Origin: Glaciecola sp. MH2013
Lineage (GTDB): Bacteria; Pseudomonadota; Gammaproteobacteria; Enterobacterales; Alteromonadaceae
Assembly: GCF_015595035.1 (NCBI RefSeq)
Contig: NZ_JADNRN010000002.1
Location: forward strand, 262,647-326,646
Length of the DNA: 64,000 nt
Direction of reading: 5' to 3'
Each line of letters begins with the position of its first letter. Positions within the stretch are counted from its first letter, which is position 1. The notes under the pieces were generated by a model, which ran no database searches, was not told the origin of the DNA, and saw only the letters and a list, made by a program, of their open reading frames with translations. Shown here in pieces: positions 1,865 to 40,188 of this stretch. The position numbers and the translations under genes were made by a program.

Positions 1865-3976
1865 GTGTATCTTTTTGAAGGCTTAAAAGCCAAAGTAAGT
1901 AAATACTTACCCGTTGAGCAAGTTGAGTATATTCAAGCTGCTTATGTACTTGCGCGCGACGCTCATGATGGGCAAACGCGAAGTAGTGGCGATCCTTACA
2001 TTACTCACCCAGTTGCTGTGGCGGGTATCTTGGCCGATATGCATCTTGATCACGAAACGCTAATGGCAGCGTTGCTTCACGACGTAATCGAAGATACACA
2101 TTATAGTAAAGATGATTTGAGTTTAGCCTTCGGCGAGACCGTGGCTGAACTTGTTGAAGGTGTCAGTAAGCTCGATAAGTTACAATTCAGCAGTAAGCAG
2201 GAAGCTCAGGCCGAAAACTTTCGTAAAATGCTGATGGCGATGGTGCAGGATATACGCGTAATACTTATCAAGCTGGCTGATCGCACGCACAACATGCGAA
2301 CATTGGGCTCTCTGCGCCCCGACAAACGCAGACGCATCGCCCTGGAAACTATCGAGATCTATTCTCCGATGGCTCACCGCTTGGGTATTCACGATATTAA
2401 AAATGAGCTAGAAGATTTAGGCTTCCAAGCGATGTACCCTATGCGGCACAGAGCCCTTCGTTCTGCAGTGAATCAGGCACGCGGCAATCGAAAGAAAATT
2501 ATCGAAAAAACACAAAGTGAGTTAGAGCAACGTCTCAAGTCTTATAACATTGACGCTAAAGTTATTGGGCGCGAAAAGCATCTTTACTCAATTTATCGCA
2601 AGATGAAGAACAAAGAACTGTCGTTTACTGAAGTCATGGATATATACGGTTTTCGAATTATCGTAGATTCAGTTGATAATTGTTATCGCGTATTGGGGGC
2701 GATGCACGGCCTTTATAAGCCCATCGAAAATCGCTTCAAAGATTACATTGCTATTCCTCGTACGAATGGTTACCAATCCTTGCATACCTCGCTGAAAGGG
2801 CTGCATGGTATTCCGGTTGAAGTGCAAATACGTACCGAAGAAATGGACCACATGGCCGACAAAGGTGTCGCGGCACATTGGCTATACAAAGAGACAAATG
2901 ATAAAGGAACCACTGCTCAATTGCGCGCAAACCAGTGGATGCAATCATTGGTTGAACTTCAGCAACGTTCTAGTACATCGGTTGAATTTATTGAAAGCGT
3001 TAAGTCAGATTTATTCCCGGAAGAAATTTACGTATTCACACCAAAGGGCACTATTGTTGAGCTGCCGATGGGGTCAACAGCCGTCGATTTTGCTTATGCT
3101 GTGCATTCTGATGTGGGCAATACCTGTGTAGGAGCACGAGTAGAGCGTCGTAATTATTCTTTAAGTAGACCCCTCGAGAATGGTCAAAGCGTCGAGATTA
3201 TTACTTCCCCTCGTGCTAAACCGAATGCTAATTGGCTTAACTTTGTAGTGAGTGCTCGGGCACGTTCGAATATACGCCACTTTCTTAAGCAACAGCAGTC
3301 TGAAGATGCCATTAACATGGGTAATCGTCTTTTGCGCCACGCTCTTGGTACGACTAAGTTAGATGAAATAGAACAAGAAGAAATCGACAGAGTCGTAAAA
3401 GAAACAAAGCATGAAAGCTTCGACGACTTGTTAGCGAACATTGGTATGGGTAATGAATTAAGTGCTATTGTTGCACGTCGGCTTGTAGGCGAAAATGCCG
3501 AAATCACGCAGAAAAAGGCCAACGTTGCTATTCGTGGCACTGAAGGTTTATTAGTGCATTTCTCACGCTGTTGTCACCCAATTCCAGACGATGAAGTTGT
3601 TGCGATTTTGTCGCCAGGACGCGGTATCGTAATCCACCAAACAGGCTGCAACAACATACGCAAACTCAGCAAAGAAGAACCACAACGTGTATTACCGATG
3701 GAATGGGATGAAGATCCTCAAGGTGATTTTAAAGCCGCACTACGTTTAGAGTTGTTTAATCATCAAGGCACTTTGGCCGCGTTAACAAGTACCATTGCCG
3801 GCAGTGAGTCCAGTATAGTGAATTTGCAAACTGAAGAGCGTGAAAACAACATTTATGTGATAGACATCGAGCTTACCACTAAAAACCGTATCCATTTAGC
3901 GAAGGTAATGCGAAAAATTAGAGCGATGCCCGAGTTACAGCGAGTGTCTCGCCACAGTCAATATAAACCACAATAA
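1865..3976 (+). CDS. spoT: bifunctional (p)ppGpp synthetase/hydrolase SpoT
   Basis: 703 aa; MYLFEGL...YITHPVAVAGILADMHLDHETLMAALLHDVIEDT (HD domain). Colinear in order and motif with enterobacterial SpoT as recalled, including the TGS and ACT regions. Confidence 0.95.
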   Translation: MYLFEGLKAKVSKYLPVEQVEYIQAAYVLARDAHDGQTRSSGDPYITHPVAVAGILADMHLDHETLMAALLHDVIEDTHYSKDDLSLAFGETVAELVEGVSKLDKLQFSSKQEAQAENFRKMLMAMVQDIRVILIKLADRTHNMRTLGSLRPDKRRRIALETIEIYSPMAHRLGIHDIKNELEDLGFQAMYPMRHRALRSAVNQARGNRKKIIEKTQSELEQRLKSYNIDAKVIGREKHLYSIYRKMKNKELSFTEVMDIYGFRIIVDSVDNCYRVLGAMHGLYKPIENRFKDYIAIPRTNGYQSLHTSLKGLHGIPVEVQIRTEEMDHMADKGVAAHWLYKETNDKGTTAQLRANQWMQSLVELQQRSSTSVEFIESVKSDLFPEEIYVFTPKGTIVELPMGSTAVDFAYAVHSDVGNTCVGARVERRNYSLSRPLENGQSVEIITSPRAKPNANWLNFVVSARARSNIRHFLKQQQSEDAINMGNRLLRHALGTTKLDEIEQEEIDRVVKETKHESFDDLLANIGMGNELSAIVARRLVGENAEITQKKANVAIRGTEGLLVHFSRCCHPIPDDEVVAILSPGRGIVIHQTGCNNIRKLSKEEPQRVLPMEWDEDPQGDFKAALRLELFNHQGTLAALTSTIAGSESSIVNLQTEERENNIYVIDIELTTKNRIHLAKVMRKIRAMPELQRVSRHSQYKPQ

Positions 3977-29122: not shown

Positions 29123-30154
29123 CTATAAGTTAACTTTCCACAGCATATCGTTAACTTGGGTAATTTCTATATTACAGCCCAATATTTGCTTAATAACGGC
29201 AATATTCGTTGTTGTGTGTAAGCTTGGTTTTGTTGTTGTAAAACTGCCGCTCCCAGCGATAGCAATTAAGATAAGCAACTGGTCGGCGAGATACTCTTCT
29301 ACGGCGGCTTTGGCATGTATGAACTTATTTACTCGTCCCACAGCACGTTTGGCAACTTTCTCTGATGATAAGCCATGCTCGCCAACAACCTCAAATATAC
29401 TACGATGAGTTTGGCTTTGAATGCTAAGCTGGAAGCTGTTACCAGGGCCAGGAGAATCTATCTGGTGAACTTGATTTAAGGCGTTCTGCCAACCAAGAAG
29501 CTTCTGAGCCGTGGCAATTTCTCTTTGGCCTATGCTGACTGGCAATAAACTCACCAAGGCATCAAGAGAACAGTTGTCTATATCGTTAGCGAAGTCGCCA
29601 CCCGAATCACTTAAGAAAAAAGGCTTGAGTGTTACAGATGGCTTCACATTAAGTTGCCATTTACCGCCGCCAGCAGGATAGAATCCCAGTTTTGAAGTAC
29701 TGACGCGACAATTTACCCCCATACCTTTTATTAAGGGCAAATATGATTGCTCGAAAAAGCTTAATGAAGGAGACATACCATTGTGTGTGCCGCCCTCAAA
29801 TACGACTGTTGAACTTTCTTTTGCCAAGGATAACACTGGTAAAATGGTCTGGCAGACCAATGTGGTACTTCCGGCGCTGCCAATAGCAAATCGATAATTC
29901 CCTGGTTTAACAGTGCGTGGTGAGAACCGAATTCGAGTAGCTCCCAGTTCCACACCTTCTGTTATAGCATCAGAAACCTCTTGTGCTGCCAAAACAGAAG
30001 TAAGGTGCTGACGTAATAGTCCAGGCTTTTTCCGACCAGCACGAATATTTACTAATTCAATATTCTGCTGGGTAAACATCGATAAAGTCAGGGCTGTTCT
30101 TAGCACCTGACCACCACCTTCTCCTTGAGCACCATCAATTATCATATAGTCCAT
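29123..30154 (-). CDS. rtcA: RNA 3'-terminal phosphate cyclase
   Basis: MDYMIIDGAQGEGGGQVLRTALTLSMFTQQNIELVNIRAGRKKPGLLRQHLTSV matches the RtcA N-terminus; 343 aa. Confidence 0.9.
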   Translation of the reverse strand: MDYMIIDGAQGEGGGQVLRTALTLSMFTQQNIELVNIRAGRKKPGLLRQHLTSVLAAQEVSDAITEGVELGATRIRFSPRTVKPGNYRFAIGSAGSTTLVCQTILPVLSLAKESSTVVFEGGTHNGMSPSLSFFEQSYLPLIKGMGVNCRVSTSKLGFYPAGGGKWQLNVKPSVTLKPFFLSDSGGDFANDIDNCSLDALVSLLPVSIGQREIATAQKLLGWQNALNQVHQIDSPGPGNSFQLSIQSQTHRSIFEVVGEHGLSSEKVAKRAVGRVNKFIHAKAAVEEYLADQLLILIAIAGSGSFTTTKPSLHTTTNIAVIKQILGCNIEITQVNDMLWKVNL

Positions 30155-30172: not shown

Positions 30173-31396
30173 TTAACCTTTTACACAAACAATTTGCTTC
30201 AAGGTATAAACGACTTCAACAAGATCCTTCTGTGCTTCCATAACCTTTTCGATGTCTTTGTATGCGTGTGGTATCTCGTCTATGACTGATTCGTCCTTCC
30301 TACATTCAACACCTTCGGTCGCAGCAATTTGATCTTTCACATTGTAAATCTTCTTGGCTTTAGTTCTCGACATCACACGACCAGCACCGTGGCTGCAGCT
30401 ATTAAAGCTTTCTGGATTTCCCAAGCCTCTTACGATGAAAGAGCGAGCGCCCATACTTCCTGGAATGATCCCCATTTCGCCTTTTTCAGCCCTTACAGCC
30501 CCTTTTCTGGTAACGTAGCATTCTTTGCCAAAGTGACGTTCGCGCGAAATATAATTATGGTGACAATTTACAGCAAGCTCAGCAGTCGAAAATGGCACTG
30601 GCAACTGTTTTCGTAACGCAGCTATTGCATTGAACATCATAACTTCACGATTTTTCGCTGCGAAGTCTTGAGCCCACTCTACGGCTTCAACATAGTCGTT
30701 GAAATAGTCGCTTCCCTCCTCAAGGTAAGCCAAGTCCATATCCGGCAGGTTTATTTGATGGCGCTGCATTTCTTTCTTCGCTAATTCAATAAAATAGCTA
30801 CCAATGCGGTTTCCAACACCGCGACTACCTGAGTGAAGCATTATCCACACAGCATCATTTTCATCTAAACAAAGCTCCAAAAAGTGATTCCCTGTTCCCA
30901 TCGTGCCAAGGTGTTTAACGTTGTTACTTTTCTCGATCGCCGGGTGCTTGGCGCAGATCCGTTCAAAGCGAGCTTGCAACTTCAACCACTCTCCGGCAAC
31001 AAGGTCTGGAATGTTATGCCAAGCACCTCTATCTGCTCGCCCTCGACCACTTGTTCTACCATGGGGAACGGCTGCCTCAAAAGCGTGCCTAATTGCAGAT
31101 AAGTTATCAGGCAACTGGCTAGCCTTTAGGGTTGTTTTAGTTGCTACCATGCCGCAACCAATATCAACACCAACAGCAGCTGGTATAACAGCATCAACAG
31201 ATGGAATAACACTCCCAATCGTTGCGCCCTTGCCTAGATGTACGTCTGGCATCACTGCAATGTGCGAATGTACCAGTGGCATTGATGCTATATTTTTTAA
31301 TTGCTGCTGAGCTTTTTCTTCAAAAGGGACTCCCTTAGTCCACGCTTTGATTGGTGCGCTTCCTTCATTCTCTATCACGTTGTAGTTCTTACACAT
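30173..31396 (-). CDS. rtcB: RNA-splicing ligase RtcB
   Basis: 407 aa; ...KAWTKGVPFEE...HIAVMPDVHLGKGATIGSVIPS...GTMGTGNHF...HSGSRGVG...HGAGR metal- and GMP-binding motifs. Confidence 0.95.
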   Translation of the reverse strand: MCKNYNVIENEGSAPIKAWTKGVPFEEKAQQQLKNIASMPLVHSHIAVMPDVHLGKGATIGSVIPSVDAVIPAAVGVDIGCGMVATKTTLKASQLPDNLSAIRHAFEAAVPHGRTSGRGRADRGAWHNIPDLVAGEWLKLQARFERICAKHPAIEKSNNVKHLGTMGTGNHFLELCLDENDAVWIMLHSGSRGVGNRIGSYFIELAKKEMQRHQINLPDMDLAYLEEGSDYFNDYVEAVEWAQDFAAKNREVMMFNAIAALRKQLPVPFSTAELAVNCHHNYISRERHFGKECYVTRKGAVRAEKGEMGIIPGSMGARSFIVRGLGNPESFNSCSHGAGRVMSRTKAKKIYNVKDQIAATEGVECRKDESVIDEIPHAYKDIEKVMEAQKDLVEVVYTLKQIVCVKG

Positions 31397-31423: not shown

Positions 31424-32578
31424 TCAAGCTATGTTGACGGTGCCATTCATTAGGCCTTCCAAGCCACCGTAAACAGTCAAGCTATCAATTCTTTCAGCCA
31501 CCTTTTCAAGGGCTTCGAGCTCCTTTAGCCGCATCAATGTTGGGTTGTTTTCCATGACTTTTGCGGTGTTATGCAAGCTTCTTGTTGCAGAGGTTTCTTC
31601 ACGTCTTTTTATTACGTTTGCCTCTGCCGCTTTTTGCGCTTCGACTACCTGATTCAATATTGCTTTCATCTCACCGGGCAAGATGATGTCTTTCACTCCA
31701 ACACTTACAAGTGATACACCAACATCTGCTAGCCGCTCGAATGCCAGTTCTTTAACTGTCTCATTCACGTACAATTTATCTAACAAAATATCATCCAAAG
31801 ACTTAGTGCCGACGGCTTCCCTCAATGCTAACTGCAGTGCCTTATAAATAAAGTCATCTACTTTATCGACACTACGTGCTGCTAACTCGGCATCATCTAC
31901 TTTGATACTTGCGCTTAAATTAATTCGCAAACTCACTCTGTCTTTGCTCAAAATTTCTTGCCCAGAAATCTCAAGCAATTGAGTTCTACAATCAAAAGAC
32001 TTCAATTCAATGTCGTGATTAAACTGCCAAAACCCATGTTGACCAGGAGATAGCTTTCGCAGCAATTGACCATTTACATAAAGTAAGCCGATATGATTTT
32101 TGTCTACATTCAAATCAGCAATTGGTTTAACTGCTACGGTGCGCTCGCTTCTAATGAGACGTGACGCTGCATTGGCACCAGCTCTGTTGACTAGAAAAAG
32201 CGTTTTATCATCAACATCGATACTTTCATCAATAGAAATTTTTTCTACCCTTATATCGCCAGCATCTTTCCAAAGATATAGATGCTCACTTGGCGCCACG
32301 ATACCTCTGAGTAAATCGTCAACGTAAAGCAAACCCACTTCTGTACTTTTTAGCTTCCAATGAGATATATGCTCTGCGAATACTGTTTGATTACGATATA
32401 AGCGTTCAGCGTTTTTTTCGGAAAAGAACAGGGTATTGATGTCAAAATAGATAAACTCAAATTCATTCTTGATGTCCCAGATTCTGTGTCTTCCTGGTTT
32501 TATTACGCTGTTAAACTGTTGATTTTTGTATGCCAAAACTCTTTGGTTTTCTGCTACTACTAGTGTTTTTATGAACAT
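31424..32578 (-). CDS. cytoplasmic SPFH/band-7 (slipin-like) domain protein, first gene of the rtc operon
   Basis: C-terminal half has the SPFH core and coiled coil (...GVKDIILPGEMKAILNQVVEAQKAAEANVIKRREETSATRSL...). N-terminal roughly 200 aa holds an internal duplication (VGLLYVDDLLRGIVAPSEHLYLWKD / IGLLYVNGQLLRKLSPGQHGFWQFN) and no TM helix. 27 nt upstream of rtcB on the same strand. Confidence 0.7.
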   Translation of the reverse strand: MFIKTLVVAENQRVLAYKNQQFNSVIKPGRHRIWDIKNEFEFIYFDINTLFFSEKNAERLYRNQTVFAEHISHWKLKSTEVGLLYVDDLLRGIVAPSEHLYLWKDAGDIRVEKISIDESIDVDDKTLFLVNRAGANAASRLIRSERTVAVKPIADLNVDKNHIGLLYVNGQLLRKLSPGQHGFWQFNHDIELKSFDCRTQLLEISGQEILSKDRVSLRINLSASIKVDDAELAARSVDKVDDFIYKALQLALREAVGTKSLDDILLDKLYVNETVKELAFERLADVGVSLVSVGVKDIILPGEMKAILNQVVEAQKAAEANVIKRREETSATRSLHNTAKVMENNPTLMRLKELEALEKVAERIDSLTVYGGLEGLMNGTVNIA

Positions 32579-32759
32579 TAAAAAATTCCTTATTTAGTCC
32601 TCTTTGAAGAGGGGGTTAGTAAGTGTTAAGTACTTGTTCGATAAGGGCCTGAAACATAACAACCACGGGGAGCGTCCTGCTTGCCATAGCGCATTTGTTC
32701 TTGGCGTTTACCCAACATTGGTAATCACAACTTACTAACGCTTAGTTACTTATCATTGT

Positions 32760-32831
32760 ATAAAGGATGGGAATTGAACCCATAACCCTCGAATTAAAAA
32801 TTCGATGCTCTACCAATTGAGCTACCTGTAT
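32760..32831 (-). ncRNA. tRNA-like element A (72 nt; Lys-UUU-like anticodon loop; AU-rich acceptor stem; no CCA)
   Basis: Minus-strand read ATACAGG-TA-GCTC-AATTGGTA-GAGC-A-TCGAA-TTTTTAA-TTCGA-GGGTT-ATGGG-TTCAATT-CCCAT-CCTTTAT gives a full cloverleaf with G18G19 and a TTCRANY T-loop; one acceptor mismatch; A1:U72. Confidence 0.75.
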
Positions 32832-32898
32832 TTAAGGAAGGATTCGAACCTTCGCCAATAGCCCTATGCTATTGCTCTATCCTCTGAGCTACTTAAAT
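32830..32898 (-). ncRNA. tRNA-like element B (69 nt; non-canonical anticodon loop CATAGGG with A33; 3-nt variable loop)
   Basis: ATTTAAG-TA-GCTC-AGAGGATA-GAGC-AATAG-CATAGGG-CTATT-GGC-GAAGG-TTCGAAT-CCTTC-CTTAAAT; perfect 7-bp AT-rich acceptor; overlaps element A by 2 nt. Confidence 0.7.
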
Positions 32899-32901
32899 GT
32901 T

Positions 32902-32970
32902 TATTAAGATGGGACTCGAACCCATGACCTTCGAAAAAATTCGATGCTCTTCCTCCTGAGCTACTTAATA
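32902..32970 (-). ncRNA. tRNA-like element C (69 nt; anticodon arm collapsed to TCGAA-TTTT-TTCGA, 4-nt loop)
   Basis: TATTAAG-TA-GCTC-AGGAGGAA-GAGC-A-TCGAATTTTTTCGA-AGGTC-ATGGG-TTCGAGT-CCCAT-CTTAATA; same T-stem as element A; cannot decode. Confidence 0.7.
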
Positions 32971-33060
32971 TCTGTTTGATCAGGTATACGCATTCGCAGA
33001 GCTCAGCGCACCGGGGTGATGTTTTGAATCACACCCACTTAATCAGACGAATAGGTATTT

Positions 33061-33076
33061 ACAAGTCACGTGCCAG
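33061..33076 (-). promoter_or_regulatory. putative sigma-54 (-24/-12) promoter for the tRNA-like, SPFH, rtcB, rtcA transcript
   Basis: Minus strand reads cTGGCACgtgacTTGTa: a perfect -24 TGGCAC with a -12 TTGT (consensus TTGC) at correct spacing. It lies between divergent rtcR and the operon, as in the RtcR-dependent enterobacterial rtc promoters. No other GG-N10-GC candidate in the intergenic region. Confidence 0.35.
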
Positions 33077-33211
33077 CTTTTACTTTTATTTTAAATTTGT
33101 AGTTAAGTTATTGTTTTAATTTACTTAAGTATGTTTTTTTGTGACTTTCGTAGGTTTTTAATTGAAATTCAAAGAATAAAAAAGTACTGTTTTGGATATT
33201 AAAGTATCTAT

Positions 33212-34825
33212 ATGGATAGTGTTGTGAAAGATGTAGTTGTTGTTAGTTTGATTGGCACACAATTAGATTATGTAGGTAAGAGAGTTGACCGATGGGCCAA
33301 GTGGCGACCTAACGTCAGCCTCTGCAGCCAAGATGATTTGGTGATAAATCAGCTTCACCTTTTGCATGATAACCATAGTAATCGTCTCGCTAACGATGTC
33401 ACCGTCGACATTGAATCAGTCTCTCCAGAAACCGAAGTTAGTCTGCATAGTGTTAATTTTCAGAATCCATGGGATTTTGAAGAAGTTTACGCGAAACTGT
33501 TTGATTGGTGCCTTCAGCAAGATTTTGATACCGACAAAAATGACTATTTATTCCATATAACAACAGGGACACATGTTGTTCAGATATGCAGTTATTTACT
33601 TACCGAAAGTCGCCACTTCCCAGGTCGTCTCATTCAGACATCACCTGATCATAACAATAAGAACAAATCGATTGGTCGGATACAAATTATCGATTTAGAT
33701 CTATCTAGGTATGATCAACTCGCGACGAGATTTGATGTTGAACACCAAGAAGGTAAAGAGTTCTTAAAAGGGGGCATTGAAACCAAAAATAAAGATTTTA
33801 ATAATCTCATTGGGCAAATTGAGAAAGTGGCGATTCGCTCAAAAGATCCGATGTTACTCACCGGACCTACAGGTGCAGGAAAGAGTCAGTTAGCTACGCG
33901 AATATTTCAGCTAAAAAAGAAACGTTCAATGCTGAAAGGCACGCTAGTGTCGGTGAACTGCGCGACCTTGAAGGGTGAAAATGCTATGGCCGCATTGTTT
34001 GGCCACACAAAGGGCGCTTTTACTGGCGCTTTAAAAGCGAGGGATGGGTTTTTACTTACTGCGAATGAGGGGGTTCTTTTTCTAGATGAAATAGGTGAGC
34101 TTGGTTTGGAAGAGCAAGCCATGCTGTTACATGCGATTGAAAACAAGAGCTTTCATCCTGTTGGAAGTGATGCAGTAGTTAACAGTGGTTTTCAACTCAT
34201 TGCAGGCACGAATAAAAATCTGAAGGAGGAAATTAAAAAAGGTGCTTTTCGAGAAGATTTGCTTGCGAGAATAAACCTTTGGACATACGAACTACCAGCT
34301 CTTAAAGATAGGAAGGAAGACATTCCTGCAAATGTTGATTATGAGATTGAGTTGTATTCCCAAAAGTCGGGGCATCGAGTGCAGTTCAATAAGGAAGCTA
34401 AAAGTCGTTTTATTGGCTTTGCAGTATCTAATAAAGCCACATGGTCTGGAAACTTCAGAGATTTAAGCTCGGCAATAACACGGCTTTGCACCTTGGCAGA
34501 TTCATCAAGAATTACTATTGCAGATGTTGAAGACGAGATTGAGAAATTAACGCGCGCTTGGAGTTCATCGGGTGAACAAACTCACACTGATATTTTAAAT
34601 AGCTATTTATCAACAGAGCAGATTCAGCAACTTGATAAGTTTGATGCACAACAACTGAGTTATGTTTTGGCGGTTTGCCAGCGACACACTAGCATGGCAT
34701 CTGCCGGCAGAGAGTTGTTTGATGTTAGCCGAACATTTAAATCTCAACCGAATGATTCAAGTCGTTTACAAAAGTATTTGAATAAATTTGGTTTAAAGTG
34801 GAGAGATATCCGAAGTATCGATTGA
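33212..34825 (+). CDS. rtcR: sigma-54-dependent transcriptional activator RtcR (CARF, AAA+, HTH)
   Basis: 537 aa. N-terminal CARF-like VVVSLIGTQLDYVGKRVDRWAKWRPNVSLC; Walker A GPTGAGKSQLA; GAFTGA sigma-54 contact motif; near-colinear with E. coli RtcR as recalled. Confidence 0.9.
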   Translation: MDSVVKDVVVVSLIGTQLDYVGKRVDRWAKWRPNVSLCSQDDLVINQLHLLHDNHSNRLANDVTVDIESVSPETEVSLHSVNFQNPWDFEEVYAKLFDWCLQQDFDTDKNDYLFHITTGTHVVQICSYLLTESRHFPGRLIQTSPDHNNKNKSIGRIQIIDLDLSRYDQLATRFDVEHQEGKEFLKGGIETKNKDFNNLIGQIEKVAIRSKDPMLLTGPTGAGKSQLATRIFQLKKKRSMLKGTLVSVNCATLKGENAMAALFGHTKGAFTGALKARDGFLLTANEGVLFLDEIGELGLEEQAMLLHAIENKSFHPVGSDAVVNSGFQLIAGTNKNLKEEIKKGAFREDLLARINLWTYELPALKDRKEDIPANVDYEIELYSQKSGHRVQFNKEAKSRFIGFAVSNKATWSGNFRDLSSAITRLCTLADSSRITIADVEDEIEKLTRAWSSSGEQTHTDILNSYLSTEQIQQLDKFDAQQLSYVLAVCQRHTSMASAGRELFDVSRTFKSQPNDSSRLQKYLNKFGLKWRDIRSID

Positions 34826-34848: not shown

Positions 34849-37398
34849 CTATTTCACTAGTCCATCTACAAAGTTTTTGATATCTGTATTACTGAATGGT
34901 TTAGATAGCAGTTCTACATTTTCAAAACCTTCCTTTTTGATGCCCTGAAGTTCACTATATCCTGTAACGAAAATGAATGGGATGCACAGTTCTTTAAGGT
35001 GCTTGGCGATTGAAATGCTGTTTTCGCCTCCTAAGTTAACATCAAGTATGGCAAACGAGATGCTTTCCTTATTGATGATTTTAATAGCGTCAGCAGAGCT
35101 AGCGGAGACGAATACCTTTTTAACACCCAGAGCATAGAGTGTGTCTTCAAGGTCTAAGGCAATAATCATATTGTCTTCGACAATCAACGCACTAGATAGA
35201 GCATTTCTTGCAGTAGGTGAGCTAAGTGTGTGTTCTGATGAATTTTCGTAAGGTTTTGGTTGCGCATCTGTTGTTACTACAAATTTACTGGGGACACTCA
35301 GTGTTACATCTATTCCATTGCCATGCGCTATTACATCTGCGGTTCCATTTAAGTCGAAGGGAATGGAGCGACTTATAATAATCGAACCGAAACCTTTTTT
35401 AGTAGCCAGTTCATTTTCATAACCAGATTCCTGCCAATCAATCGTTAAATCCTTGTTGTGCGATAAACTCCATTCAATTTTTATTTGTCCACGATCGTTT
35501 CGCAAAGCGCCATGTTTAACAGCGTTTGTTACTAACTCGTGAACAACCAATGTAAGGGTAGTGTACGCCTTAGGTAACAGATTTACCGATGGGCCTTCAA
35601 TAATCACATTGTTTTCTATGTTTTCAGTAAAAGGGTTTAACTCTGTTTCAATAAGCTCTTGAAGTGGTGCATGGCTCCAATTGCGTTTAGTAAGGTGGTT
35701 TTGTGCAACCGCAATAGCTTCAATTCTCCCTCCAAGCACTTGCTTAAACTCAGAGATATCTACTGCATTACTGGCCGTTTTTGATATCACCGAGCTAATC
35801 AGACCCAATATGTTTCTTACTCTATGATTCAGCTCGTGAATCAGCATATCTTGCTGTTGTTGTGATTCTCTTATCAAGCGCTCACGTTCATCAATGTTAC
35901 GAATAACAATTTCCATAAGCATTTGTCGGAAAAGCTTTGCTAAGCCAATTTCTTTTTCTAACCAAGGCGCACTGAAGCCTTTCCTTAGCTCTTGCCAAGC
36001 GGCAAAACTTTTTCGTGGTGTTAATCTTGATCCATTTGGGCCCAGACTAACTGGTTTTTCTGGGTTGCCAGCCCATGATATTGCTTGAGTCTCTTCTTTG
36101 CGAAGAAAAATCATGAAGTCTTTGGGATGTCTCGAAATTGGTATTGCGAGCATACCTGCGTAGCGTTCAGAAACGGTCAGTTCTGAGTCTAGAAATGAAG
36201 CTAAATTATCAGAGTAAACTACCTCATTAGTAGGGTAATTATTTAATTCCTTTAGAATAAGCTGAATATCCTCATCACTGATTTCAGCTCCAGTTTGAGC
36301 CATTTTTTTATCGACCCACAAAACAGTGCTATCAGACTGAATGAGCTCATGAAAGCTATCGATATGCGGTACTAAATTGTTATACACAGTCTCTTCATTA
36401 TTCATTGCAGACATAATACTGACTTGAAGGCTTCGAGCTCTGTCAGTATCGACCATACTTGCATTGCGAAGTCGGCCCGCAAGTTCCAATGAAAATACTT
36501 CTCCGTATACCTCTATTATCGACCGCAATTCTAAACTCATATATTTCGCACTATTGTGATGGCAAGCAAACAGCCCCCACAATTCCCCATCAACCACAAT
36601 ACTTAATGAGAAACTAGCTCCTACACCCATATTCTTCAAATACTCAATATGTATCGGCGATACTGCTCTGAGTGAACTAAGAGAAAGGTCGATTGCTTCT
36701 TCGTTACTGTCGTTCGAACCTATTATGTCGATCGTTTCGGCGTCTACATCTTCAATTTGGCGCGTTAGGTTCTTTACGTATAAGCGCCGGGCTTGTTTGG
36801 GGATGTCAGAGGCTGGGTAGCGTAAACCGAAGAAGCTTTCCATTTCGTGAGTTTTATTTTCTGCAATAACTTCGCCTGTACCATCGTTGTGAAAGCGATA
36901 AAGCATGATCCTATCGTAGCCTGTTAGTTGACTAATTTGTTCGGTCGCATGCACAAACAAACTCTGCATTGAATCGGTTTGAGAAAGAGATCTCAGGGTA
37001 TCTCTAAAACTGGGAAGTGACCTTCGTTGTTGTACAGGTTGGTGATATTCAAATTCAACTATTACTAATTCGCCGCTTTTGTGAATACTGATATCGTAGG
37101 ATGTTTTTCGGTCAAAAATAAACTCAGCAAATACGCGTTGTGTTTGCTCTGGTGCAAGCTCTTGAGCGAAGTGTTTAATTTCAGTGAATATTGAAGGGGA
37201 AATTAATTGCTCACTTGGTATTTTGAAGCACTCCTCGATACTCAAATTAGTAAATTTCTCGATATTTTTTGAGCAATAAGCCAAACGCCAATCTTGCGTA
37301 AAGGCAATAAATCCGCCATACGCCTGTATCTTTCCGACTAAGTGAATCGCTTCTTTATCGCAGCTAGATAAGTCGACATTTTTATATGAGTTACTCAT
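34849..37398 (-). CDS. bphP: bacteriophytochrome with HWE/HisKA_2-type kinase and C-terminal receiver
   Basis: N-terminal SSCDKEAIHLVGKIQAYGGFIAF (biliverdin Cys plus IH..G.IQ motif); GAF/PHY; H-box HELNHRVRNILGLISSV; C-terminal REC (ALIVEDNMIIALDLEDTL...FAILDVNL). Start taken at ATG 37398 (MSNSYKN...), which overlaps the upstream kinase stop as ATGAGTAA; the ORF also opens at 37458. Confidence 0.8.
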   Translation of the reverse strand: MSNSYKNVDLSSCDKEAIHLVGKIQAYGGFIAFTQDWRLAYCSKNIEKFTNLSIEECFKIPSEQLISPSIFTEIKHFAQELAPEQTQRVFAEFIFDRKTSYDISIHKSGELVIVEFEYHQPVQQRRSLPSFRDTLRSLSQTDSMQSLFVHATEQISQLTGYDRIMLYRFHNDGTGEVIAENKTHEMESFFGLRYPASDIPKQARRLYVKNLTRQIEDVDAETIDIIGSNDSNEEAIDLSLSSLRAVSPIHIEYLKNMGVGASFSLSIVVDGELWGLFACHHNSAKYMSLELRSIIEVYGEVFSLELAGRLRNASMVDTDRARSLQVSIMSAMNNEETVYNNLVPHIDSFHELIQSDSTVLWVDKKMAQTGAEISDEDIQLILKELNNYPTNEVVYSDNLASFLDSELTVSERYAGMLAIPISRHPKDFMIFLRKEETQAISWAGNPEKPVSLGPNGSRLTPRKSFAAWQELRKGFSAPWLEKEIGLAKLFRQMLMEIVIRNIDERERLIRESQQQQDMLIHELNHRVRNILGLISSVISKTASNAVDISEFKQVLGGRIEAIAVAQNHLTKRNWSHAPLQELIETELNPFTENIENNVIIEGPSVNLLPKAYTTLTLVVHELVTNAVKHGALRNDRGQIKIEWSLSHNKDLTIDWQESGYENELATKKGFGSIIISRSIPFDLNGTADVIAHGNGIDVTLSVPSKFVVTTDAQPKPYENSSEHTLSSPTARNALSSALIVEDNMIIALDLEDTLYALGVKKVFVSASSADAIKIINKESISFAILDVNLGGENSISIAKHLKELCIPFIFVTGYSELQGIKKEGFENVELLSKPFSNTDIKNFVDGLVK

Positions 37399-39634
37399 AG
37401 TGATTGCTCTTTTGGGTTGGAGTATTTGCTCGCATTTGCTTGGCTGAATGAATGTCATTTACGAACGTGGCTTCAAGTAATTCACATACCTGGTTTGATG
37501 AAGGTAGGAGCGGAATAGTTCGACAGGTACGCTGCCAAACAGTTGGTTGCTTGAAAACGGTATCAGTTAACACACAAATCGGAATAACAATACGTTTCGC
37601 CGTAAACTCATTAAACAACAGGGGTATGCTTAATCTTGGAAGTTCATAATCAATTAGAAGAAGTTGAAATGACTCTACCGTAAGTATTTCAGGTATGTCG
37701 GCAGCCTTATCGACAAACATCATCTTGAATGCTTGGGTTGTATTGAAAATTTGCAGTAAGGATGAAATGAGTTTTTCATTTTCTGATGCGACTAATATAT
37801 TAATCGGGTTTGCAAAAGAGCATTGTGTAGCAATGTCTTCCAATTTCTGAGCAAGTTTTTGCTTCTCTGCTTGGTCAATCGATTTGCTTACAAACATTTG
37901 ATACAGATTTTCGGCTATTTCACTTGGGCTTAAAGGTTTGGAAAGTACTAGATCCGTAACCTTTCTGCATTCTGATATAAGCTCGTCATCTACTGAGGCA
38001 GTGATGGCGACAATAACAGCTGTTGATTTGCTATCCTTTATTATCTTCGAAGCTTCCACGCCCGACATAATGGGCATGTGAATATCCATCCAAATAACAT
38101 CAAAATGTCGCTCGGCCGCCTTGTGAATTGCTTCTTTTCCGTTAGAGGCAAAGTCGAAGTCAGAGAAGCCTAGTTGTTTTAATGACTCGTGAAGCACCAC
38201 TTTATTTATTTCATTGTCATCAACAATTAAATGAGAAATCGGATTTGTTGTTGCATATGTTAACATTAATGTAGAGTAGTCGATGGGGTATTCACTTAGC
38301 GTATAAGACGCTCGTAAAACGTCGCTACGGACTGCAATTTGGATTAGCTCGCTCGGTAGAATTGGTTTATACAGTACATGCCAATCAGCGAATTCTTTAT
38401 ATTGATTATTGTCGAGTAAAACACAATTCGCTTTCGCTCGAAGGGCGTCTTTTAATTCATTGCTTTCCTGAAGTGTACCTAGCTCAGCAAAGTCGATGAT
38501 AAGTAAATCGGTTTGTTCGGAATGATTTTCTGAAAGCAGACTTTGCGTTGAATCATACTGTTGAACGTTAATATTCCAATTTGAAAACAGTGAGCGAATT
38601 GATTCGGTTGCTGTTCCCTTTGAGGAAACTAGCTTGATTATTGTTTTATGTTTATGCTCAGCGGTAAATCGAGGTATCCCTTTTAGTCGCACCTTTTTGA
38701 AAGTGAGGTCAAAAAAGAGTTGTGTTCCAAAGTTCTCTTTGCTCTTAGCTTGAATCTTTCCTCCCATCATTTCGACTATTTCTTTGCTAATGTTGAGGCC
38801 AAGACCAGAACCTCTTGCACGAGAATTTTGGCTTGAATTCACTTGATAAAAGGGTTCAAAAACGGCTGCAAGATCTTTCTCAGGAATCCCCACGCCCGTG
38901 TCGGATACTAAGAATCTTACTGAGAGCTCTTCTGCATTTTCCTGTCTGAATATGACCCACACAGAAACGTTACCGTGGTCAGTGAATTTGAAGGCGTTAC
39001 CTATCAAGTTACTGAGCACCTGATACAAGCGTTGAGAATCTGATTTTACGCCAAGCTCAATCAGCCTAGAATCGAAATGGAGTTGAAGTTCGATGTTTTT
39101 CGATTGTGCCGACTGGGTAAATATTCTGACTACGTTTTCGCAAACTTCTAAGAGTCTGAATGGCTCTAAACGCAAAGACATTCCATTTGGAGAGTTATTC
39201 GAGAGATCTATTGCATCAGAAATAACCGTCATCAAAGCACGCGAAGAGACTCTAATTTGGTCCAAGTATCGTTGTATTTTTGGTGATACTGTTTCTTTTT
39301 CAATAACTTCAATTAAACCATTGATGCCATGTAATGGTGTTCGAAGGTCATGACTCACTTTTGCCAAATGCTTCGCTTTATCTTGCGATATTTCTTTCTC
39401 TTGCTCAATTAAACTGCTGTACTTGTCATCATTGCTTTTGATGCTCTGAACATGTAGGTACTGGATGATTATCAAAACCAAAGTTACAAGGATTATCAAG
39501 ATGGACGCTATCACAGGTAACCAATCTGGCTGTTGTGTTTGTATGAATGTATTGAAGCTTGCGAAGGTGAATAAAAGCCACAGTGTTATTCTCACGACAC
39601 TAACTCCTCTTGGGTAACCACCTTCTTGTTGCAT
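37391..39634 (-). CDS. hybrid sensor histidine kinase/response regulator (two TM helices, HisKA, HATPase, two REC)
   Basis: SHDLRTPLHGI H-box; G-box GSGLGLNISKEIVEMMGG; REC LIVDDNEINKVVL...DVIWMDIHMP. Start uncertain (ATG 39634 chosen; ORF extends to 39706 and overlaps bphO). Confidence 0.8.
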   Translation of the reverse strand: MQQEGGYPRGVSVVRITLWLLFTFASFNTFIQTQQPDWLPVIASILIILVTLVLIIIQYLHVQSIKSNDDKYSSLIEQEKEISQDKAKHLAKVSHDLRTPLHGINGLIEVIEKETVSPKIQRYLDQIRVSSRALMTVISDAIDLSNNSPNGMSLRLEPFRLLEVCENVVRIFTQSAQSKNIELQLHFDSRLIELGVKSDSQRLYQVLSNLIGNAFKFTDHGNVSVWVIFRQENAEELSVRFLVSDTGVGIPEKDLAAVFEPFYQVNSSQNSRARGSGLGLNISKEIVEMMGGKIQAKSKENFGTQLFFDLTFKKVRLKGIPRFTAEHKHKTIIKLVSSKGTATESIRSLFSNWNINVQQYDSTQSLLSENHSEQTDLLIIDFAELGTLQESNELKDALRAKANCVLLDNNQYKEFADWHVLYKPILPSELIQIAVRSDVLRASYTLSEYPIDYSTLMLTYATTNPISHLIVDDNEINKVVLHESLKQLGFSDFDFASNGKEAIHKAAERHFDVIWMDIHMPIMSGVEASKIIKDSKSTAVIVAITASVDDELISECRKVTDLVLSKPLSPSEIAENLYQMFVSKSIDQAEKQKLAQKLEDIATQCSFANPINILVASENEKLISSLLQIFNTTQAFKMMFVDKAADIPEILTVESFQLLLIDYELPRLSIPLLFNEFTAKRIVIPICVLTDTVFKQPTVWQRTCRTIPLLPSSNQVCELLEATFVNDIHSAKQMRANTPTQKSNHYE

Positions 39635-40188
39635 AAGGCTCTGAGAGCGGAAAAAGAGTCCAATGCACCAGCAAGTACTTGTTGATAGTGCTCTTCTGTG
39701 GCGCACAGGGAATGAATATAGTTAATTGTGGTGCGGAAGCTATCTATTTTTTGGTGGCCATAGCAATCGTAAAAACGAGTAGCCTTTTGTAATCCGAGTG
39801 TTTTTTTAACTTTTTTACCGATAATCATACCACCAAGAGAAGAGCCCTCAGCGACGTACAGCACTCCTAGGGAAAAGTGTCTAGATGCCGTCTTCTTAGC
39901 GAGTGCTAATTTTGGCAGTGTTGTTCCGCCTAATTCCTGTAAATCTGCCTCCAGCAATCCAGTTTTTACTTTTATTAACGGTAAAGACGAGTGATTGAAA
40001 TATTCGTGTAAATGCGTGGACTCCGCGGCGGCAAACCATTTATGCATAATTTGCATAACCGCTATATAGCTTTCAATAGTTAACGTTGTTTCCATCAAAC
40101 TTCTTAACAAAGGACTGCTATCCAATGCTGTGTGGGCAGAGTGCGTATCTGTTTTTAGCCTTTGATGTGTTGTATTAAAATAATTCAA
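39592..40188 (-). CDS. bphO: heme oxygenase (biliverdin-producing, BphO/HemO-like)
   Basis: 198 aa; N-terminal LKTDTHSAHTALD fits the heme-oxygenase proximal-His helix; heads the phytochrome operon. Confidence 0.65.
   Translation of the reverse strand: MNYFNTTHQRLKTDTHSAHTALDSSPLLRSLMETTLTIESYIAVMQIMHKWFAAAESTHLHEYFNHSSLPLIKVKTGLLEADLQELGGTTLPKLALAKKTASRHFSLGVLYVAEGSSLGGMIIGKKVKKTLGLQKATRFYDCYGHQKIDSFRTTINYIHSLCATEEHYQQVLAGALDSFSALRALCNKKVVTQEELVS

Follow-up and report, generated by a model that had tools for sequence, protein, structure and literature searches.

Three tRNA-like cloverleaves lie head to tail on the minus strand (32970-32760) of a 64,000-nucleotide (nt) stretch of the Glaciecola sp. 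MH2013 genome (contig NZ_JADNRN010000002.1, positions 262,647 to 326,646), which we refer to as the window and number from its first nucleotide. They precede, on the same strand, a gene for a Band-7/SPFH protein, the RNA ligase gene rtcB and the RNA 3'-phosphate cyclase gene rtcA. Comparison with related loci shows selection on the acceptor stem, D arm and T arm of the cloverleaves and not on their anticodon loop, and it shows that the cloverleaves are tied to the Band-7 gene regardless of the position or presence of rtcB and of the regulator gene rtcR. We regard it as somewhat probable that the array supplies tRNA-shaped, non-decoding modules within an RNA that partners the Band-7 protein, predicted to be an anchor-free, vault- and stomatin-like protein, in RtcB repair.

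The three units belong to a previously predicted class, b7a-tRNA (band 7-associated tRNA), as that class is described by Wang et al. (bioRxiv 10.1101/312249), who credit the prediction to Burroughs and Aravind (Nucleic Acids Res 2016). The elements described in an earlier note on this DNA, written from the sequence alone, are thus not new as a class. According to the citing paper, b7a-tRNA closely resembles real tRNA and was predicted without experimental validation. The window array has the cloverleaf fold, the adjacency to a Band-7 gene and the association with RtcB that the citing paper gives for the class.

Architecture of the tRNA-like array

The array reads unit 1 (C), unit 2 (B) and unit 3 (A), of 69, 69 and 72 nt. 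Each scores above the gathering score of the Rfam tRNA model RF00005 (29 bits): unit 1 (32902-32970, minus strand, as for the other two) at 58.8 bits, unit 2 (32830-32898) at 47.4 bits when searched alone, and unit 3 (32760-32831) at 70.1 bits. ARAGORN also calls all three on the minus strand, as 'tRNA-???' with a 2-nt anticodon (32901-32970), Leu-tag (32828-32898) and Lys(ttt) (32758-32831). Unit 2 is unlisted in whole-window RF00005 scans, probably because it overlaps the higher-scoring unit 3. These calls, together with direct reading of the sequence, bear out the earlier description of three minus-strand cloverleaves of 72, 69 and 69 nt with spacers of 0-3 nt and a 2-nt overlap. Neither ARAGORN nor the Rfam tRNA model finds a further tRNA in the 64-kb window, which, with the retention of the same array in many genomes, places the array far beyond chance.

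The canonical D and T arms noted earlier are present as described: the D arms have the form GCTC...GAGC, and the T loops (TTCGAGT, TTCGAAT and TTCAATT) fit TTCRANN. CCA is encoded in none of the three units, again as had been stated. The acceptor stems have the AU-rich sequences reported for them; the accompanying claim of an A1-U72 pair in each fails for unit C, which has U1:A72.

Unit 1 combines the acceptor TATTAAG/CTTAATA with an anticodon stem TCGAA/TTCGA that closes on a 4-nt UUUU loop, the collapsed anticodon arm that had been recognized from the sequence. Its discriminator A (32901) is followed by ACA where CCA would be. Three nucleotides (AAC), discriminator included, separate it from unit 2, whose acceptor is ATTTAAG/CTTAAAT. 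The anticodon arm of unit 2 can be read with the previously given loop CATAGGG, which has A at position 33, or as a 6-bp stem with the 5-nt loop AUAGG. Unit 3 has a weak AU-rich acceptor (ATACAGG/CCTTTAT) with one C-U mismatch, a discriminator A at 32759 and a canonical-looking 7-nt anticodon loop, UUUUUAA, the 'Lys-UUU' loop ascribed to it earlier. Nucleotides 32831-32830 are common to units B and A, the last two acceptor nucleotides of B being the first two of A. The 3' end of the array lies 182 nt upstream of the Band-7 gene.

Folded individually, units 1 and 2 take the cloverleaf as their minimum-energy structure, and the minimum-energy fold of unit 3 leaves out its AU-rich, mismatched acceptor stem. 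Thermodynamic folding of the whole array yields mixed alternative pairings.

A close known parallel, and an apt one as drawn in the earlier note, is YrlA (RF02553) of the Salmonella rsr-yrlBA-rtcBA operon. YrlA is likewise a non-decoding, tRNA-shaped RNA embedded in an RNA-repair operon under RtcR/sigma-54 control, and it shares with the units a highly conserved tRNA-like D arm (GUAGCUCA..GGUAGAGC) and T arm (GGUUCGA.CC). It differs in being circularly permuted, with the T arm before the D arm, a loop-closed acceptor and a long Rsr-binding stem, whereas the units keep the normal tRNA order beside a Band-7 gene. The units might nonetheless be read as YrlA-type Y RNAs whose permuted domains span the unit junctions and bind Ro60/Rsr, a reading to which we give next to no probability. 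The Rfam YrlA model does match across the C/B and B/A junctions, at 31.9 and 31.0 bits; these scores are far under the gathering score of 69, and tandem tRNAs are a false-positive mode described by the YrlA authors themselves (PMC4201824). The junction hairpin also requires complementary acceptor strands in neighbouring units, which are lacking in the B/A pair and in Pseudomonas-type pairs, and no TROVE/Rsr gene occurs in the operon or among the neighbouring genes. We rejected the permuted fold on the sub-threshold junction scores and on the non-complementarity of the junction strands across the family.

Linkage of the units to the Band-7 gene

We collected relatives of the Band-7 protein as a genomic set of 80 loci from Gamma- and Betaproteobacteria (41-76% identity), to which the close relatives Colwellia psychrerythraea and Shewanella algae were added, and a metagenomic set of 65 loci, 43 of them usable. 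We searched for units with ARAGORN, with a D-arm/T-arm pattern and with a covariance model derived from the units. In 79 of 83 genomic loci and 39 of the 43 usable metagenomic ones, the Band-7 gene is preceded on its own strand, within 1 kb, by at least one unit. The same module is found in Pseudomonas aeruginosa (PA4582 / PA14_60630). A search of phage records for Band-7 protein homologues gave none.

By the D-arm/T-arm pattern, the 83 genomic loci carry one unit in 42 cases, two in 32 and three in 5. Only the window, Colwellia and Shewanella algae among these five have true head-to-tail triple arrays; such arrays also occur in 12 metagenomic relatives, those whose Band-7 proteins are the most similar (77-86% identity). 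The triple array is therefore characteristic of a clade and not particular to this genome. The unit period is 67-74 nt across loci, which means that the units always abut or overlap.

Gene order was compared in the 63 loci whose flanks were complete (about 4 kb as stored); 44 of these loci have rtcB within that distance. The arrangement of the window, with rtcR divergent from units, Band-7 gene and rtcB, recurs in 25 of the 63, and 24 of these 25 have units. In another 17, rtcB (often with rtcA) lies upstream, and the units stand in mid-operon directly before the Band-7 gene. A further 19 have no rtcB within about 4 kb; 16 of these carry units, and 15 of the 16 also lack rtcR. Two loci (L044 and L029) hold the RNA and Band-7 pair among unrelated genes. 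Given these varied gene orders, the constant pair is the RNA and the Band-7 gene, and the position as an RtcR leader is one of several. The fixed partner is thus not the RtcR-controlled leader context proposed in the earlier note: the units are kept upstream of Band-7, and their linkage to rtcB fails in the 16 unit-bearing loci whose flanks lack that gene. The position within the operon, between promoter and gene or between two genes, is kept across Gamma- and Betaproteobacteria.

Several of these loci show further tRNA-like or RNA-repair features. Ordinary-looking tRNA arrays (3-17 genes with diverse anticodons) stand just upstream of the b7a unit and Band-7 gene in L020 (2052-2781), L029 (670-2827), L031 (1829-2669), L036 (70-2295), L053 (32-784), L066 (386-721) and L072 (153-2031). 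We found no rtcR at these loci, most of the tRNAs encode CCA, and L029 has a neighbouring gene for an HNH endonuclease. Such arrays may represent a mobile set of spare tRNAs. In Enterovibrio and Grimontia (L008, about 3600-3648; L018, about 3640-3690) a T-arm-like hairpin, GGGTTCGATTCC, precedes the first full unit without a matching D arm, and may be a decayed extra unit. In Colwellia psychrerythraea (L001, 7574-9155), rtcA is followed by genes for a nucleotidyltransferase of the CCA-adding/poly(A) polymerase type with an HD domain and for an RlaP-family protein, neither of which is present in the window.

Selection on the elbow and acceptor stem

For the covariation test, 91 units were aligned with MAFFT, blind to structure, and pairs were then counted on the cloverleaf. 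Paired cells amount to 93%, against 65% with partners shuffled and 34-44% with partners slid. Changes on both sides occur in 19 of 21 cloverleaf pairs, and covariation extends to all four stems. Near-invariant sequences are found in the D arm, (G/A)TAGCTCA..GGTAGAGC, and in the T arm, GGTTCGAnTCC. The acceptor and anticodon stems covary, and the anticodon loop is not conserved.

As a comparison group we used 66 other tRNA genes from the same loci. A 7-nt loop with U33 and a purine at 37 is present in 36 of the 91 Band-7-linked units and in 57 of the 66 other tRNAs, and an encoded CCA in 19/91 and 54/66, respectively. The D-arm signature shows the opposite distribution (90/91 against 25/66).

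Within the triple-array clade, each unit keeps its own acceptor, D-arm and T-arm sequences nearly unchanged while the anticodon loops differ. Orthologs of unit 1 in the 14 other triple arrays retain the acceptor, D and T arms and have a changed anticodon loop. In two loci (L087 and L093), unit 1, starting at about 2075, carries a 14-nt insertion in the anticodon loop, with the rest of the unit unchanged. The unit 3 loop, UUUUUAA in the window, is CUUUAAC ('UUA') in most relatives and GUGUUAA or CAUUUAA in others, and the anticodons called by ARAGORN differ among orthologous units, the 'stop' UUA included. Fixed D and T arms, covarying stems and free loops together indicate selection for tRNA shape, that is, for the elbow and the minihelix, and not for decoding. 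Loops this variable also count against any model that needs one particular loop.

The features expected of a decoding tRNA are accordingly scarce in the array. A 7-nt loop with U33 and a purine at 37 is found in unit A; in unit B the loop is 5 nt long or has A33, and in unit C it is 4 nt long. No anticodon is conserved, with unit 3 reading UUU here, UUA mostly and GUU or AUU elsewhere, and units 1 and 2 varying likewise. Nor is each unit a separately excisable gene with a complete acceptor end, given the B/A overlap and the absence of CCA. On these three grounds (loop, anticodon conservation and acceptor end) we rejected the units as real tRNA genes. The earlier view that they are tRNA mimics and not decoders is supported by the 4-5 nt loops in two units and by the non-conserved anticodons.

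It is very improbable that the units are ordinary tRNA genes, or decaying pseudogenes such as integration-site remnants, that lie beside the operon by chance. All three do exceed the Rfam tRNA threshold, unit A has a canonical loop, and across the family a Met-type CUCAUAA loop occurs in 17 of 91 units alongside the CCA of the 19 mentioned above. Yet units B and C cannot present an anticodon, B and A share two nucleotides, and among orthologs the anticodons change but the stems covary and the D and T arms do not vary, which points to selection and not to decay. The maintenance of the in-operon position across Gamma- and Betaproteobacteria argues in the same direction.

Loci with a single unit (e.g., L020, L028, L029, L036, L055 and L082) often have the canonical CUCAUAA loop (Met/Ile2-type CAU), and the perfect Met-type loops are often from such single-unit lineages. 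These loops hint at an ancestral unit that functioned, or continues to function, as a tRNA(CAU), and the units with a Met-type loop in single-unit lineages may still be working tRNAs.

The same data bear on the proposal that the units serve as decoys for anticodon nucleases, with unit A mimicking tRNA-Lys for PrrC-type enzymes, or as a source of 2',3'-cyclic-phosphate fragments that feed the CARF domain of RtcR in a positive feedback. The Lys-UUU-type loop of unit A fits such a role, as does the tRNA-damage theme suggested by the ordinary tRNA arrays beside the module in some relatives. In Salmonella, tRNA fragments that end in a cyclic phosphate activate RtcR, and competitive inhibition of the nuclease has been suggested as a role for YrlA (PMC7790460). 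However, the anticodon loops are the least conserved part of the units; orthologs read different 'anticodons', and many loops are 4-6 or 8 nt long or contain insertions. Since the loop is what anticodon nucleases read, the units do not maintain a stable decoy specificity, and the loops of the unit 3 orthologs argue against the PrrC-type decoy that the earlier note had based on element A. In addition, 15 of the 63 full loci have units with neither RtcR nor RtcB in the flank, and YrlA itself is not cleaved by the relevant nuclease in Salmonella, where YrlA fragments were not seen (PMC7790460). We therefore consider a decoy or ligand role unlikely, and no observation in this analysis speaks for the supply of a CARF ligand.

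RNA domains flanking the array

The stretch from promoter to start codon is conserved throughout an alignment of the rtcR-Band-7 intergenic region from seven genera, and two further domains flank the cloverleaves in it. The first, at the 5' end (32971-33048, minus strand, about 78 nt), is predicted by RNAalifold to form a three-way junction. In its closing helix, the predicted 5' end of the transcript pairs with the stretch just before unit 1, and the enclosed hairpins are GGnUGUGAUUC..UCACnCC and GGUGCGC..GCGUAUnCC. Compensatory changes occur in 11 of its 25 pairs (RNAalifold, 19 sequences), and its sequence is highly conserved.

The second domain is a 129-nt rod, a long irregular hairpin at 32613-32741 (minus strand), supported by covariation and by a covariance model, R2. 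It is closed by GUUAGUAAG (32739-32731) pairing with CUUACUAAC (32623-32615), and its apex reads AGC-AGGAC-GCU at 32681-32671, followed by CCCC. In an alignment of 18 sequences, 29 of 41 pairs show changes on both sides, and 93% of cells are paired, against 33-41% with partners slid and 80% after shuffling. Model R2 finds full-length rods in the corresponding place in Enterovibrio, Grimontia, Aliikangiella and Pseudoalteromonas luteoviolacea, all of them absent from the sequences on which it was built, and gives no match in Pseudomonas or Methylococcales. Separate alignments of the Pseudomonas and Methylococcales/Thiothrix groups reveal different, also covarying, long hairpins at the same place. 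The apex loop has the form AGGAY followed by CUCCCC, and a similar C-AGGAN-G ... CUCCCC is seen in Pseudomonas rods.

Searches with nhmmer for the 5' and 3' domains returned matches limited to the Alteromonadales-type clade and Vibrionaceae. No Rfam family matches either domain, and the other Rfam matches in 32300-33400, at E values up to 10, are at chance level (plastid leaders, miRNA). A small variable hairpin and the Shine-Dalgarno sequence follow directly after the rod. The RNA thus runs from a sigma-54/RtcR promoter through the 5' three-way junction, three cloverleaves and the 129-nt rod to the Band-7 ribosome-binding site, a conserved layout of about 440 nt.

Operon context and promoter

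The genes downstream of the array are those for the Band-7/SPFH ('slipin') protein (31424-32578, minus strand, 384 aa; Pfam Band_7, E = 1e-28), with the Shine-Dalgarno sequence AAGGAA at 32591-32586, for RtcB (30173-31396, minus strand; Pfam RtcB, E = 8e-128) and for RtcA (29123-30154, minus strand; Pfam RTC and an NCBIfam equivalog match of 380 bits). Divergent from them is rtcR (33212-34825, plus strand), which encodes a CARF/sigma-54 activator (Pfam RtcR and Sigma54_activat) and matches the NCBIfam RNA_repair_RtcR equivalog at 762 bits against a cut-off of 650. The Pfam and NCBIfam assignments confirm the gene order given in the earlier note, with the units on the strand of Band-7(SPFH)-rtcB-rtcA and rtcR divergent. 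Between the array and the Band-7 gene there is no predicted terminator.

A sigma-54-type promoter, TGGCACGTGACTTGT (-24 GG / -12 TG), lies upstream of the array at 33061-33075 on the minus strand. The pattern TGGCAC-N5-TTG has a single match in the window (33075-33062, minus strand), which is not significant alone, since 0.6 matches are expected by chance. The same pattern stands 106-126 nt, mostly 112 nt, before the first D arm in 25 of 25 loci of the clade; the sigma-54-like promoter pointed out earlier is thus kept at a near-fixed distance. The operon has the -24/-12 promoter expected for RtcR/sigma-54 control, and its dependence on RtcR is predicted from this sequence.

Pfam searches of eight neighbouring proteins (26.9-39.7 kb of the window) found no TROVE/Rsr domain, and PADLOC includes no defence model for Band-7, RtcB or RtcA. 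Adjoining rtcR on the minus strand are genes for a bacteriophytochrome with an HWE histidine kinase and a receiver domain (34849-37458) and for a hybrid histidine kinase (37391-39706); these have no evident link to the tRNA-like array.

The Band-7 protein

The protein is 100% identical to a 'slipin family protein' of Glaciecola sp. MH2013, and NCBIfam offers no specific family for it. Its AlphaFold model, with a predicted local distance difference test (pLDDT) score of 87, places three small beta modules (residues 3-46, 71-115 and 153-196) ahead of an SPFH domain and also contains a long helix. The tandem beta modules (residues 1-196), which precede the SPFH core, share the motif xExGLLYxDGxLxxxLxPGxHxFW. 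In the model, beta strands begin at residue 3 and no helix occurs before residue 57, so that an N-terminal membrane helix or hairpin is not predicted. In the Pseudoalteromonas luteoviolacea relatives the protein has about 540 aa, probably through extra beta modules, and is accompanied by only 1-2 units.

Foldseek searches against the PDB return two groups of matches. The first consists of SPFH proteins that form rings or cages (stomatin, HflK/C, prohibitin, erlin and flotillin), and the second is the major vault protein, matched over the whole length of the model (E about 1e-11, TM-score 0.33-0.39). The predicted structure of the Band-7 protein thus shows no membrane anchor, and it is similar to the major vault protein and to SPFH proteins that build cages. 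A soluble oligomeric scaffold would fit the model, as a matter of structural resemblance.

Discussion

If the tRNA-shaped modules belong to an RNA partner of the Band-7 protein, RtcR activated by RNA damage would drive transcription of the RNA together with Band-7, rtcB and rtcA. The modules would be recognized by a partner that binds the elbow or the acceptor, which could be the Band-7 oligomer, RtcB, RNase P or a CCA-adding enzyme. The RNA would then act as a cofactor or scaffold of a Band-7 ribonucleoprotein that aids RtcB and RtcA with broken tRNA-like substrates. By analogy, such a particle may be the counterpart of the Y RNA with Ro60/Rsr encoded by the Salmonella rsr-yrlBA-rtcBA operon, for which a like role has been proposed. 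YrlA's tRNA-like domain is recognized by tRNA enzymes (PMC4201824).

Several points weigh against this interpretation. Two Aliiglaciecola loci keep the Band-7 gene, one of them with rtcB, and lack full units. The first (L015, Aliiglaciecola sp.) has rtcR and Band-7 separated by a 630-nt spacer in which only a T-arm hairpin, UUGUGGGUUCGAAUCCCAC, remains at 3730-3748, so full cloverleaves are not indispensable; in the second (L021), neither pattern nor model scans detected units. The Foldseek match to the major vault protein has a high root-mean-square deviation and a low TM-score. Co-transcription and contact between RNA and protein are suggested by gene order, and a cis-acting leader would account just as well for the constant same-strand position 5' of the Band-7 start. 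Finally, deletion of the Pseudomonas aeruginosa Band-7 gene (PA4582 / PA14_60630, 'PaFlo8') gave no phenotype in standard assays, RNA damage not being among them (PMC13086221). This gene is placed in the rtc operon by two papers, and neither mentions an RNA. The L015 remnant offers a natural test of which parts are dispensable.

tRNA-shaped elements on protein-coding transcripts have precedents. The tRNA genes of the E. coli tufB operon are co-transcribed with protein genes and processed by tRNA enzymes, and the thrS operator is a tRNA mimic bound by threonyl-tRNA synthetase for feedback. The array resembles both in this respect; the tufB tRNAs decode, however, and thrS-type operators mimic the anticodon arm, whereas in the array the anticodon arm is free and the elbow and acceptor are conserved.

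A comparable cis-acting role, with the modules and rod forming a regulatory 5' untranslated region of the Band-7 mRNA, appears possible, although rather unlikely. It could take the form of autoregulation, in which a tRNA-binding Band-7 or RtcB complex binds its own message in the manner of the thrS operator, or of processing by RNase P or RNase E with stability signals that separate the leader from the message. The RNA is invariably found on the strand of the Band-7 gene, 180-500 nt upstream of its start, remains with Band-7 also in mid-operon, is followed by no predicted terminator before the gene and leads, after the rod, directly into the variable hairpin and Shine-Dalgarno sequence, all of which suit a leader. 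Against this, a full elbow and acceptor conserved in 1-3 copies and a 129-nt rod exceed the need of known tRNA-mimic operators, and the related YrlA acts in trans as a stable RNA (PMC4201824). A cis-acting leader and an RNA partner of Band-7 are mutually compatible roles.

The proposal of a Band-7 partner RNA is in line with the role suggested for b7a-tRNA. As the citing paper describes it, b7a-tRNA is a tRNA-like non-coding RNA gene beside a Band-7/SPFH gene and an RtcB ligase, as the array is, and the proposal was that it partners the Band-7 protein in the way that Y RNA partners Ro60. The array differs from that description in having three abutting or overlapping copies, two of them with collapsed loops, set between a 5' three-way junction and a 129-nt rod. 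In the literature searched, Burroughs and Aravind (2016) being outside it, we found no description of the clade-wide triple array, the nucleotides shared between units or the two flanking domains. Full-text searches for b7a-tRNA and for SPFH/stomatin with RtcB returned no experimental study of the RNA, and no report of tests on the Band-7/tRNA-like RNA pair was found.

Vault particles consist of a cage of major vault protein and vault RNA, and vault RNAs are not cloverleaves. The Band-7 system shares with the vault N-terminal beta repeats, an SPFH-like shoulder, a long helix and, putatively, pairing with small structured non-coding RNAs, a likeness that for the Band-7 protein rests on the Foldseek match of a predicted model. 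More speculatively, and with a probability that we hold to be low, the composite RNA of about 440 nt and a soluble Band-7 cage could form a bacterial ribonucleoprotein particle, a prokaryotic counterpart of the vault and of Ro-Y RNA, that captures damaged tRNAs for RtcB and RtcA or presents them to these enzymes. The array would then be only the most conspicuous part of that RNA, and the head-to-tail spacing of the cloverleaves would let them contact adjacent subunits of the oligomer.

The RtcB/RtcA repair system is widespread, yet its substrates and helpers in bacteria are still poorly defined. The Salmonella operon carries a Ro60-Y RNA pair, and many other Proteobacteria carry a Band-7 protein and a tRNA-like RNA instead. 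The triple array, the shared nucleotides and the flanking domains make this pair easier to test, and the genetics of P. aeruginosa are easy. For the Band-7 family, our analysis gives a concrete picture of the RNA, with a constrained elbow, acceptor, rod and 5' junction and a free anticodon loop, travelling with Band-7 rather than with RtcR.

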